DNA of 64,000 nt. It comes from Dictyostelium discoideum. Lineage: Eukaryota. Below, in pieces: positions 33,340 to 35,802 of this stretch. The stretch spans positions 5,056,001-5,120,000 of the forward strand of contig CM000154.2 in assembly GCA_000004695.1 (NCBI GenBank). Direction: 5' to 3'. Below the pieces are notes generated by a model, which saw nothing but the letters and a program-made list of their open reading frames with translations, searched no databases and was not told where the DNA came from. The first letter of the stretch is position 1; each line of letters opens with the position of its first letter. A program made the translations under genes and the position numbers.

Positions 33340-34233
33340 ATGAAATTATTATTTTGTTTAATATTATTTCAATTAATAGTTTTAATAAAAAGTGAAAGAG
33401 AATATTTTACATTTCGAGAGGATGTACGTAGATGTGAAAGACCAAGATGTGGAGGATATTTTTTAAAAAAATTAAACTCTCGAGCAGATCATGAAATTTA
33501 TGTAAGTAGTTTTATAATGGTAAATGCAAATTTAAATCCAATGGAAATTGAAGACCATGATCAAAATATTATCAGTGGGTATGTAATGCCATCTGATGAA
33601 GATGATGGTTATAATACATTCTTTTTAAAGGGAATACACGAAAGAATGGTAATTCCAGATGTGATTAATAGTTATAAAAAAGTTTTGTCAAATAAAAAAT
33701 TTAAAAATTCAGATTCATTTTATTTCCTTTCCAGCTCTCAAATTGAATGTATTCAATCTGATGGTTGTCCAATTTATAAATCAATAAAGATCAATTTTAA
33801 TGAATCAACAAATTTTGAATCATACACAGAGCCATACACATCAAATGTTCCTTTATTGGATTTAAATTGGTTCAATTCAAGATTAATTAAAAAGGATATT
33901 CATAGTCCTTATATTGGTTCAATTGTTTCTGGTACAATTAATGATAACCAATTATCAATCACTGAAATTTTCATAAACACTGAAGATCCAGTTTTCCCTT
34001 GTAAAAGAAATACTTTTACTTGCACTACTCCTCAGGTTCCAACATTTTCTCGTTCAGTTGATCGTTGTCCAATATTTGAAAAATGTGTTACAAGATCTGT
34101 TTGTCATCTTGGAATTCCAACTTGCCCAAAAGGTTATAAATCTTATTCTTACCCTTCTTTACCAAAAGGTTGCTTAAAATATTATTGTGACCCTGAAGCT
34201 TTACCAAATCCTCATAAAGTTTCTGGACCATAA
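33340..34233 (+). CDS. secreted cysteine-rich protein, paralog A (no recognised domain)
   Basis: 297-aa single ORF with signal peptide MKLLFCLILFQLIVLIKS. It is colinear with paralog B over the conserved blocks (EYFTFREDVRRC..CGGYFLKKLNS; FFLKGIHERMV; TEPYTS.VPLLD..WF.SRLIK; CPIFEKCVTRSVCHLGIPTCPKGYKSYS; GCLKYYCDPEALPNP), with 8 or more conserved Cys. Confidence 0.6.
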   Translation: MKLLFCLILFQLIVLIKSEREYFTFREDVRRCERPRCGGYFLKKLNSRADHEIYVSSFIMVNANLNPMEIEDHDQNIISGYVMPSDEDDGYNTFFLKGIHERMVIPDVINSYKKVLSNKKFKNSDSFYFLSSSQIECIQSDGCPIYKSIKINFNESTNFESYTEPYTSNVPLLDLNWFNSRLIKKDIHSPYIGSIVSGTINDNQLSITEIFINTEDPVFPCKRNTFTCTTPQVPTFSRSVDRCPIFEKCVTRSVCHLGIPTCPKGYKSYSYPSLPKGCLKYYCDPEALPNPHKVSGP

Positions 34234-34339
34234 AAATAAATAAAAATAATAATAAAATCTACTAATTTATTTTTATATAAATCTTTTTCTTATTTTGTTT
34301 ATTTTATTTCTTATTTTTTTATTATTAAAAAAAGAATTT

Positions 34340-34378
<39 letters not shown>

Positions 34379-34687
34379 AAATCCTAATTTGGGTTTACTT
34401 ATTTTTTATATCATATTTATTTTAAAGTTTATTATTTTAAAATAAAATTAACTTTGGAAAAAAAAGAAAAAAAAAATTACATAAATATAAAAATAATAAA
34501 AAAAGATATAAAAAAATTAAATAACTCCAAAATAAGATATTGATTTTTTGGGGTTTTTTTATTACATTCAGCACATGTGTTGGTATGTTTTTTTTTTGTT
34601 TTTTTTTTGGGGGTAATAATAATTTTCTGAATGTTCTAACAAAAAATTATTATTTCAATTTTTAATTTTATTAATGTTGTTATTATT

Positions 34688-34730
<43 letters not shown>

Positions 34731-34920
34731 TTTTTTTGGGGGTAATAATTTTCTGAATATACCAAAATAAATTATTTTTTTAATTTTTAATTTTTTTAAT
34801 TTTTTAATTTTTATTTATTATTATTATTATTTTTTTTTTTTTTTTAATAAAAAAAAAGTATAAATAGATTTTTTTTTTTTTATATTGATCAAAATAATAT
34901 TAATAAAAAAAAATAAAAAA

Positions 34921-35802
34921 ATGAGAATATTAATTTTTTTAATAATATTAATTCTAATAATAAATATTACTAATGGTAGTGATGAAGAATATTTCACAGT
35001 TCGTAAAGATTTACGTAAATGCGCAACTTGTGGTGGGTATTTCTTTAAAAGAATAAATTCAGATGAAAAAGAAATGCATGTCACAGGACTTTCATTAATT
35101 AATGCTAATTTGAAACCAAATAAGATGGAAGATGAAAAGAATGTAATTATTAGTGGTGATATTACTTTAACTGATAAAGATCAAGGATTTTATAGTTTCT
35201 TCTTAAAAGGAATTCATCATAGAATGGTATTACCACCAAGTGATGATAATAAATCAAATTCAAAAAATCTTAAAAATTCCACATCAGAATCATATGGTTT
35301 CATTTCAAATTCTGGTACTACTTGTATTCAAGCAAAGGGTTGTCCAATTTATAAGTTTTCAAAAATCAATACCAATGAAACTACTAATTTTGCAACCTAT
35401 ACTGAACCTTATACATCCTGTGTTCCATTATTGGATAAAGATTGGTTCTCCTCGAGATTAATTAAAACTGATACTTCTTTTTATGTTGGTTCCATTGTCT
35501 TGGGATCAATTTCAAAGGGTGAATTAACAATTTCAAGTATTTTTGTTAATACAGAAGATCCAGCCTTACCATGCCCAGAAAATCCAAGTTGTCCTGGTGG
35601 TAAAATTCAAACTTTTACTCGTTCCGTTAATCGTTGTCCAATCTTTAACAAATGCGTAAATAGAGGTGTCTGTCATCTTGGAATTCCTCATTGTCCAGTT
35701 GGTTATACTTCTTATTCTTTACAATCTGCTCCAAATGGTTGTTTAAAGTATTATTGTGATCCTGATTCTTTACCAAATCCATCAACTGTTTTAGGTCCTT
35801 AA
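34921..35802 (+). CDS. secreted cysteine-rich protein, paralog B (tandem duplicate of 33340..34233)
   Basis: Start taken at AAAAATGAGA (34921), giving signal peptide MRILIFLIILILIINITNG. The ORF-track start at 34885 lies in poly-A. Shares EYFTVRKDLRKCATCGGYFFKRINS, FFLKGIHHRMV, CPIFNKCVNRGVCHLGIPHCPVGYTSYS and GCLKYYCDPDSLPNP with paralog A. Confidence 0.6.
   Translation: MRILIFLIILILIINITNGSDEEYFTVRKDLRKCATCGGYFFKRINSDEKEMHVTGLSLINANLKPNKMEDEKNVIISGDITLTDKDQGFYSFFLKGIHHRMVLPPSDDNKSNSKNLKNSTSESYGFISNSGTTCIQAKGCPIYKFSKINTNETTNFATYTEPYTSCVPLLDKDWFSSRLIKTDTSFYVGSIVLGSISKGELTISSIFVNTEDPALPCPENPSCPGGKIQTFTRSVNRCPIFNKCVNRGVCHLGIPHCPVGYTSYSLQSAPNGCLKYYCDPDSLPNPSTVLGP

Follow-up and report, generated by a model that had tools for sequence, protein, structure and literature searches.

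What are the two similar, cysteine-rich proteins encoded side by side on the plus strand of a 64,000-nucleotide stretch of the Dictyostelium discoideum genome (contig CM000154.2, positions 5,056,001 to 5,120,000; hereafter the window), and where do they come from? An earlier note, made from the letters alone, had described the two genes, here called gene A (33340..34233) and gene B (34921..35802), as a tandem pair of secreted paralogs that might form a lineage-specific extracellular family with no recognisable domain. Our best explanation, to which we give about an even chance of being right, is that they are a DUF6748 pair of myxobacterial origin whose products are non-catalytic extracellular binding proteins. 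Each protein has a predicted signal peptide, two homologous barrels of about 90 residues that are modelled with OB-fold topology, and a module of about 80 residues with eight invariant cysteines.

Domain content and cysteine framework of the gene pair

Both open reading frames (ORFs) lie where the earlier note had placed them. Gene A (33340..34233 including the stop codon) encodes 297 residues in a single exon and was identified by exact-sequence look-up as DDB_G0291169 (Q54F14, XP_635376.1) of D. discoideum AX4; gene B (34921..35802 including the stop codon) encodes 293 residues, likewise in a single exon, and is DDB_G0291171 (Q54F13, XP_635377.1) of the same strain. The mechanical ORF of gene B opens at an upstream TTG (34885), and because the ortholog proteins begin MRILIFL, we took the ATG at 34921 as its start. 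The two proteins are 56% identical over 280 residues (BLASTP, E 1e-109), a resemblance far beyond chance, so that their description as tandem same-strand paralogs is borne out. A third copy of the pair was not found by tblastn within the window; D. discoideum has an unlinked third paralog, DDB_G0270926 (Q55DB3; gene C).

In both proteins the N-terminus has a positive residue followed by 14-16 hydrophobic residues (MKLLFCLILFQLIVLIKS in one and MRILIFLIILILIINITNG in the other), and on reading the two sequences we found no second hydrophobic segment, no hydrophobic or glycosylphosphatidylinositol-type C-terminus and no KDEL/HDEL signal. Signal peptides are predicted from these N-termini, in agreement with the earlier note, and both proteins are predicted to be secreted. 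The signal peptide of gene A would comprise residues 1-18 (33340..33393), with an approximate cleavage site after IKS, and was modelled as a lone helix of residues 2-14; that of gene B would comprise residues 1-19 (34921..34977). In the annotation that Kin et al. 2018 (PMC6198379) worked with, gene B has the Gene Ontology term 'extracellular space'.

The 12 cysteines of the mature proteins pair off one to one in the alignment of genes A and B (32/37, 137/143, 221, 228, 243, 249, 255, 262, 278 and 283 in gene A numbering) and substitutions are densest in a linker, as expected from the claim that the cysteine framework is strictly kept while the loops diverge. The motifs quoted in support of that claim are all present, except that R.C..CGGYF describes gene B only (RKCATCGGYF, that is C-x2-C), the corresponding cysteines of gene A being arranged as C-x4-C (RRCERPRCGGYF).

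The statement that no domain can be recognised held for only part of each protein. Pfam DUF6748 (PF20533), with a gathering cut-off of 27 bits, matches gene A with 42.8 bits (residues 21-159, E 6e-11) and gene B with 30.0 bits (residues 23-157, E 5.3e-7), the UniRef name of Q54F14 is already 'DUF6748 domain-containing protein', and precomputed PF20533 assignments exist for all close orthologs. Both proteins belong to the uncharacterised DUF6748 family, a label that places them without explaining them. The Pfam local alignment ends at position 137 of the 196 model positions; repeat B, described below, nonetheless aligns family-wide, bacterial relatives span model positions 2-195, and the full two-barrel DUF6748 region (residues ~20-216) is present in both proteins. 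Thus, a described domain, which the earlier note had named as evidence against a new family, was found for the N-terminal two-thirds (although it is one of unknown function) but not for the C-terminal module, which matched nothing in Pfam or in the Protein Data Bank (PDB).

Within the N-terminal region of gene A, repeat A (residues 19-108, 33394..33663) is homologous to repeat B (residues 122-216, 33703..33987), with an hhalign probability of 97.2% and E 3.6e-11, and each repeat starts with the pattern Y-[YF]-x-[FV]-R...C-x(2-5)-C...[LIV]-N. The two are joined by a variable linker (residues 109-121, 33664..33702), which is the block of lowest predicted local distance difference test (pLDDT) score in the structural model (63) and the region in which ortholog substitutions are densest (0.38-0.69 per site versus 0.03-0.28 elsewhere). 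By alignment to gene A, the repeats of gene B cover residues 20-106 (34978..35238; loop C34-C37) and residues 120-213 (35278..35559; loop C135-C141).

We used a 72-sequence cross-kingdom alignment as AlphaFold input and obtained a model with a mean pLDDT of 91.5 and a predicted template modelling score of 0.87; a 14-sequence Dictyostelium-only alignment gave an unusable model (pLDDT 51.7). Each repeat is modelled as b1-b2-b3-helix-b4-b5, which corresponds to OB-fold topology, with a cysteine pair in the b1-b2 loop (C32-C37 in repeat A and C137-C143 in repeat B). As assigned by DSSP in the model, repeat A has strands at residues 21-27, 40-44 and 52-60, a helix at 67-71 and strands at 76-84 and 92-102, and repeat B has strands at 126-132, 146-150 and 156-163, helices at 166-182 and strands at 195-201 and 204-213. 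Taken as a whole, the model has no significant structural neighbour in the PDB; its weak matches are almost all OB folds (CcmL/EutN, RecO, cold-shock/S1, RPA, HIN, PriB/SSB, tRNA-synthetase anticodon-binding domains, the meteorin NTR domain and potempin C). Among these weak neighbours are OB folds of secreted disulfide-bonded proteins (NTR/TIMP-type including meteorin NTR, and potempin-type protease inhibitors). A BFVD structure search with the model returned nothing, and PDB sequence searches gave zero matches with a single protein, with the full-family profile and with a profile of the C-terminal module. We conclude that DUF6748 arose by internal duplication of an OB-like barrel of about 90 residues and that a disulfide closes a loop in each of the two copies. 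For the new disulfide fold considered in the earlier note, the lack of a significant solved neighbour of the whole model speaks in favour, and the OB-fold topology of the N-terminal two-thirds against.

The C-terminal module spans residues 217-297 of gene A (33988..34230; C-6-C-14-C-5-C-5-C-6-C-15-C-4-C) and residues 214-293 of gene B (35560..35799; C-5-C-14-C-5-C-5-C-6-C-15-C-4-C) and is modelled as two beta-hairpins, with a pLDDT above 93 for most of the module. Among the 72 sequences of both kingdoms, six of its eight cysteines are invariant and five further cysteines of the proteins are at least 90% conserved; among 143 homologs, all eight C-terminal cysteines are 98-100% conserved, and co-loss of cysteines supports disulfides 32-37 (10/15), 137-143 (32/35) and 262-283 (3/3). 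Near-invariant residues other than cysteine in the 72-sequence alignment are N46, G80, W177, R238, P260, G265, Y266 and D284, and repeat A carries the most conserved non-cysteine motif, R-x-C-x(2-4)-C-G-G-[YF], in its b1-b2 loop. No recurring Pfam family emerged among 37 divergent copies of the module scanned singly: the EB module (PF01683), with scores of 11.5-15.9 bits against a cut-off of 24.3, matched two of them (best E 0.0084), Dicty_CTDC and cEGF matched one each (E 0.27-0.28), and Kazal (PF00050/PF07648) matched none at E<=5. The two full proteins had no Pfam match to EGF, Dicty_CTDC, granulin, saposin or Kazal at E<=10, in line with the exclusion of the first four in the earlier note, and no NCBIfam match, TIGR04289 included, at E<=10.

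We also observed an N-E-[ST] sequon for N-glycosylation in repeat B (KINFNEST at 33790..33810 and KINTNETT at 35360..35385). The sequon is conserved in group 4 and kept in most dictyostelid sequences of the alignment termed A1 (N154 at least 90% conserved, E155 invariant), is replaced by NEP in the group of the third paralog (P0011-P0013) and does not occur in bacterial homologs.

Distribution, modular architecture and origin of the family

An exhaustive profile search over 1.84 billion cluster representatives recovered a family of 285 representatives at E<=1e-3 and 213 at E<=1e-10, most of them about 300 residues long and matched from end to end; word-indexed searches with a window protein or a wide alignment gave only Dictyostelium and one bacterial match. 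Two groups can be told apart, an AT-type with eukaryotic signal peptides and a GC-type with lipoprotein lipoboxes (L-x-[GA]-C). Amino-acid composition classed 79 sequences as eukaryotic, of which 20 were looked up; all 13 of these that bear species names are dictyostelids, and they come from all major groups. Dictyostelids with the family include Cavenderia, Acytostelium, Tieghemostelium, Polysphondylium violaceum, D. purpureum (two genes) and Synstelium (at least six sequences).

The bacterial members are located on genuine bacterial contigs, for instance adjoining a nuo operon. We scanned one genome per bacterial species with a five-sequence alignment, a 31-sequence bacterial alignment being too divergent, and the fetched loci contain 86 bacterial DUF6748 proteins, 18 with the Dictyostelium-type tail ('type 1') and 68 others. 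The type-1 proteins come from metagenome-assembled genomes (MAGs) of Myxococcota (Archangiaceae, Myxococcaceae and Byssovorax/Polyangiaceae) and none is from a cultured or characterised organism. Like the window proteins, those of loci L004, L015 and L017 and the proteins P0053 and P0147 are about 300 residues long and have the two-barrel region and the eight-cysteine module, with 22-30% identity over the full length and the shared motifs GY..S[WY] and CDP.F. The C-terminal cysteine spacing is common to both kingdoms (C-7-C-14-C-5-C-5-C-6-C-15-C-4-C in Myxococcota); in the bacterial proteins, which have a GC-rich amino-acid composition, a lipobox and a linker of 20-40 residues replace the eukaryotic signal peptide. 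Because the full-length architecture and the cysteine spacing thus also occur in Myxococcota lipoproteins, the suggestion of a lineage-specific family has to be abandoned.

The 68 other bacterial proteins, from Nannocystis, Polyangiaceae, Kofleriaceae, Labilithrix, Pyrinomonadaceae (Acidobacteriota), one Nostoc and one Fibrobacteria, seem at first to be 'N-terminal only', yet almost all of them end in a different cysteine-rich tail. One or two Kazal motifs are present in at least 28 of the 86 bacterial proteins, and Pfam Kazal_1 was confirmed in the four proteins tested (25.8-55.3 bits against a cut-off of 21). At least 17 of the 86 have a C-4-C-4-C-8-C-7-C-5-C-7-C-10-C tail that resembles TIGR04289 (E 9e-7, below the TIGR04289 cut-off), and a few are tail-less. 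Because the tails vary between type 1, Kazal and the eight-cysteine cluster, we conclude that DUF6748 is a tandem-barrel scaffold with an interchangeable small disulfide-rich C-terminal module.

The Kazal fusions of Nannocystis, Polyangiaceae, Labilithrix and other Myxococcota have the same tandem barrels (Pfam E 1e-44 to 1e-54) and, like the window proteins, are extracytoplasmic with a small disulfide-rich C-terminal module; they differ in that this tail consists of one or two Kazal_1 domains (PF00050), whereas the window proteins lack a Kazal signature (C-x7-C-x6-Y-x3-C), and in an extra cysteine pair in repeat A. In the proteins of Pyrinomonadaceae and Kofleriaceae, the same N-terminal domain is followed by an eight-cysteine tail of similar size, but its spacing and motifs differ from those of the window proteins. 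Spore-coat proteins of the CTDC/PsB type and CyrA with its EGF-like repeats are likewise cysteine-rich and developmentally induced in Dictyostelium, and they are secreted, as is predicted for the window proteins; they are not homologous to the window proteins, which have no repeat arrays. We note that tandem duplication recurs in the family: four Nannocystis loci (L049, L054, L062 and L069) have two adjacent DUF6748-Kazal genes (4542..5525 and 5653..6834 in L062), and adjacent copies are also found in Cavenderia (DFA_03720/DFA_03721) and in group-4 Dictyostelium. Four further loci from Myxococcota/Fibrobacteria (L021, L025, L030 and L034) encode tails of about 210 residues with 20 cysteines, and in L021, L030 and L034 these tails contain two Kazal motifs, each after a four-cysteine segment (C-7-C-5-C-7-C) that lies outside any Pfam model.

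To place the dictyostelid proteins, we applied neighbour joining to 184 alignment columns of the DUF6748 region from 229 sequences, with the 68 bacterial proteins that are of type 2, have Kazal tails or lack a tail as the outgroup. In the resulting tree, 74 of the 79 sequences classed as eukaryotic group together in a single clade, which arises from within a grade of bacterial type-1 sequences; the five stragglers are composition misclassifications or unplaceable fragments, one of which, P0123, is near-identical to a gene of a Myxococcota MAG. In a bootstrap with 88 taxa, the outgroup split was recovered in 96%, a clade containing the dictyostelids in 65% and monophyly of the bacterial type-1 sequences in 1% of replicates, and strict monophyly of eukaryotes had 6% support when all sequences classed by composition were kept. 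Because the tree is nested in this way, the bacterial diversity is far greater and the eukaryotic range is restricted, the family probably entered the dictyostelid stem by a single horizontal transfer from a myxobacterium and subsequently expanded. This transfer has moderate support, from a distance method alone. The converse, that an ancient family was passed on vertically or that bacteria received it from amoebae, would sit comfortably with the modest bootstrap value of the single eukaryote clade, with the short basal branches and with a misbinning, conceivable in principle, of the MAGs from which most bacterial type-1 members come. We nevertheless regard it as quite improbable, because bacterial DUF6748 proteins show a far greater variety of architectures and of source taxa (Myxococcota, Acidobacteriota, one Nostoc and one Fibrobacteria), all species-named eukaryotic members are dictyostelids, the bacterial type-1 sequences almost never group together when rooted on the other bacterial types, and the bacterial genes have lipoboxes, a GC-rich composition and nuo operons or other bacterial genes as neighbours.

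Contamination as the source of the pair was excluded: the genes lie in an AT-rich 64-kb segment (G+C ~22%), and the gene order is kept in another isolate of the D. discoideum complex and in D. citrinum. In the tree, the duplication that gave rise to genes A and B is older than the split of D. discoideum, D. citrinum, D. dimigraforme and D. firmibasis and younger than the split from D. purpureum, placing it within the group-4 dictyostelids; the adjacent Cavenderia pair stems from a separate duplication.

Developmental expression and possible functions

We took expression values from file 5 of Kin et al. 2018 (PMC6198379), which holds the Parikh 2010 time course (0-24 h), prespore and prestalk values, and transcripts per million (TPM) for cup, spore, stalk and vegetative cells. 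Gene A rises from 0.13 at 0 h through 0.5, 6.3, 8.9 and 59 to a peak of 151-182 at 20-24 h, with 16 in prespore and 19 in prestalk cells and 18.9, 1.0, 2.1 and 0.8 TPM in cup, spore, stalk and vegetative cells. Gene B is far more abundant and is high from 8 h onwards (1.4, 74, 1,833, 1,962, 1,742, 1,249 and 1,536 over the time course, 1,833-1,962 being the values at 8-12 h), with prespore and prestalk values of 981 and 804 and 628, 35, 34 and 0.7 TPM in the four cell types. For gene C the time course reads 0, 1.1, 13, 12, 30, 31 and 35, with 26 in prespore and 19 in prestalk cells and 1.5, 109, 20 and 0 TPM in cup, spore, stalk and vegetative cells (PMC6198379). Neither gene A nor gene B is active in growing cells; both are switched on during multicellular development, and the three paralogs are differently staged. 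Gene B is also among the DESeq-significant developmentally up-regulated genes with a Cavenderia ortholog in Schilde et al. 2016 (PMC5097433). At the protein level, the 2026 life-cycle proteome (PMC12821622) detected Q54F13 (gene B) at the mound and culmination stages in one replicate of two, and Q55DB3 in fruiting bodies only, in both replicates.

The orthologs of genes A and B are intact and syntenic in every species examined, and the ratios of nonsynonymous to synonymous substitution (dN/dS) relative to D. citrinum, 0.26 for gene A and 0.23 for gene B, indicate purifying selection (below 0.4; range 0.23-0.37). Between AX4 and isolate ACTFIW the ratio is 0.89 for gene A (dN 0.059, dS 0.067) and 0.42 for gene B, with 87% and 91% protein identity, respectively. 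The high value of gene A, which is based on small counts, could reflect relaxed constraint or diversifying selection; its amino-acid changes in ACTFIW (L084 10001..10891) are mainly in repeat A and the linker. A view of gene A as an exceptional divergence hotspot of the kin-recognition type was rejected: AX4 and ACTFIW share 97-99.5% identity in housekeeping neighbours, but two other neighbours are as divergent as gene A (85-87%).

How might the proteins act? Because the near-invariant non-cysteine residues (N, G, W, R, P, G, Y and D) form no recognisable catalytic set, we favour non-catalytic binding outside the cell. OB folds classically bind ligands on the face where the b1-b2 loop lies, and in DUF6748 the conserved, disulfide-braced b1-b2 loop would supply the binding surface. 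The targets may be extracellular proteases, bound or inhibited in the matrix of the aggregate, slug and fruiting body. This specific mechanism is argued by analogy, because Kazal domains fill the C-terminal slot in about one-third of the sampled bacterial relatives, and we consider it possible but put it forward tentatively; such a role is plausible for two groups of predators with many released hydrolases and an extracellular matrix of their own making.

Several observations speak against our explanation. The window proteins themselves lack a Kazal signature, so that the protease link is guilt by architecture in distant relatives, and the 18 full-length type-1 bacterial loci have no conserved gene neighbourhood and hint at no partner. 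The phylogeny is a distance tree of about 184 columns in which the eukaryote clade reached only 65% and five sequences were set aside as unplaceable, and 20 of the 79 sequences of eukaryotic composition were looked up, 13 of them species-named. Q54F14 (gene A) was not detected in the life-cycle proteome, and gene B was seen in one of two replicates (PMC12821622). In the searchable literature, neither 'DUF6748' nor the three DDB_G identifiers appear in the main text of any paper, and the identifiers are likewise absent from the supplements of PMC6889452 and PMC4931340.

The same data can be read in other ways. The proteins may be structural components of the extracellular matrix, spore coat or cup, that is, disulfide-rich building blocks or cross-linkers with no inhibitory activity. 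Gene B is transcribed at a level (~1,800-1,960 between 8 h and culmination) comparable to that of matrix and coat genes, in both prespore and prestalk cells and subsequently in cup cells; DDB_G0270926 has spore-enriched RNA and a protein found in fruiting bodies only, and it appears in the list of proteins up-regulated in fruiting bodies beside ecmA and a protein similar to pspB (PMC12821622). Invariant cysteines together with the lack of a conserved catalytic-type residue set would also suit a building block. Still, the repeats and low-complexity segments that typify Dictyostelium matrix or coat proteins are absent from the two proteins, as are CTDC, EGF and cellulose-binding domains, all 12 cysteines are, judging from co-loss, apparently in intramolecular pairs with none obviously free for cross-links, and the relatives in bacteria are lipoproteins anchored in the membrane, many with fused Kazal domains, which better fits a binding or protective role. 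On balance we hold a structural role to be rather unlikely.

A secreted developmental signal, or a protein that sequesters a ligand and thereby controls cell-type proportioning or culmination, would share the predicted secretion, and it would be in keeping with the strictly developmental expression, the distinct timing of the paralogs (8 h, 20 h and spore-specific) and an evolution faster than that of the housekeeping neighbours (87-91% versus 97-99.5% identity, with the gene A dN/dS of 0.89 between the two lineages). This we judge improbable, given that the gene B transcript is far above the typical level of signalling factors, that the same architecture is a lipoprotein in bacteria, which have no Dictyostelium signalling pathways, and that neither a receptor nor a processing site is evident. 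That the pair consists of degenerate, functionless duplicated ORFs, an outcome that the earlier note had tied to missing transcripts or orthologs, is hardly conceivable: both transcripts and orthologs were found, the ORFs and their synteny are intact in every species examined with dN/dS below 0.4 against D. citrinum, the transcripts are abundant and regulated, peptides have been detected, and the cysteines are conserved across two domains of life. We therefore retain non-catalytic extracellular binding by a DUF6748 pair of myxobacterial origin as our explanation.

Genomic surroundings and significance

On the chromosome, the pair is accompanied by genes for a papain-type protease, NUBPL, a Methyltransf_16 protein, a homeobox protein and NDUFV2. 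The papain-family cysteine protease gene (30228..31270, minus strand) has two exon ORFs (Peptidase_C1 E 3e-38 and 1.3e-23, Inhibitor_I29 E 2.3e-16) and lies two genes upstream of the pair, with NUBPL between them, an order kept in D. citrinum and in the other isolate; its proximity to the DUF6748 pair may be coincidental but deserves mention in view of the proposed protease binding. On the plus strand, 38013..40016 encodes a 667-residue protein with a C-terminal homeodomain of the TALE type (Homeobox_KN E 1.8e-13) that evolves fast outside the homeodomain (87% identity to ACTFIW and 66% to D. citrinum over about 380 residues). The maxima of G+C in the window (0.34-0.36, at 16001..20000 and 52001..54000) correspond to long coding exons (ORFs of 793, 763 and 1,160 residues). 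When 21772..44771 was compared with assembly GCA_054859355.1 (L084), which is labelled D. discoideum, housekeeping genes were 97-99.5% and several others 85-91% identical, which suggests that this isolate represents a cryptic species or a deep lineage within the D. discoideum complex, beyond ordinary polymorphism.

Judged by the searchable literature, four results appear to be new, namely that DUF6748 is an internally duplicated OB-like barrel; that it carries one of at least three interchangeable C-terminal modules, Kazal being one of them and the Dictyostelium type being in no domain database; that the complete architecture is common to Myxococcota and Dictyostelia, suggesting a transfer from bacterium to amoeba; and that the amoeba copies are abundant, strictly developmental and differently staged among paralogs. 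In the boldest form of our proposal, an extracytoplasmic OB-barrel scaffold with an exchangeable disulfide-rich 'warhead' was captured from myxobacteria by the social-amoeba ancestor and expanded there into developmentally staged secreted proteins, and the four-disulfide module of the amoeba proteins is an undescribed fold that binds or inhibits proteases in aggregative multicellularity, which we think unlikely as a whole. Even if the proteins do not bind proteases, knock-out and structural studies would have in this family a clearly delimited target with high expression. If they do, DUF6748 would provide a new inhibitor scaffold and a further transferred gene recruited into aggregative multicellularity, beside known cases such as the diguanylate cyclase gene dgcA (PMC10559540). 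A captured scaffold, if confirmed, would mean that two classic 'social' soil predators share extracellular machinery through gene transfer.

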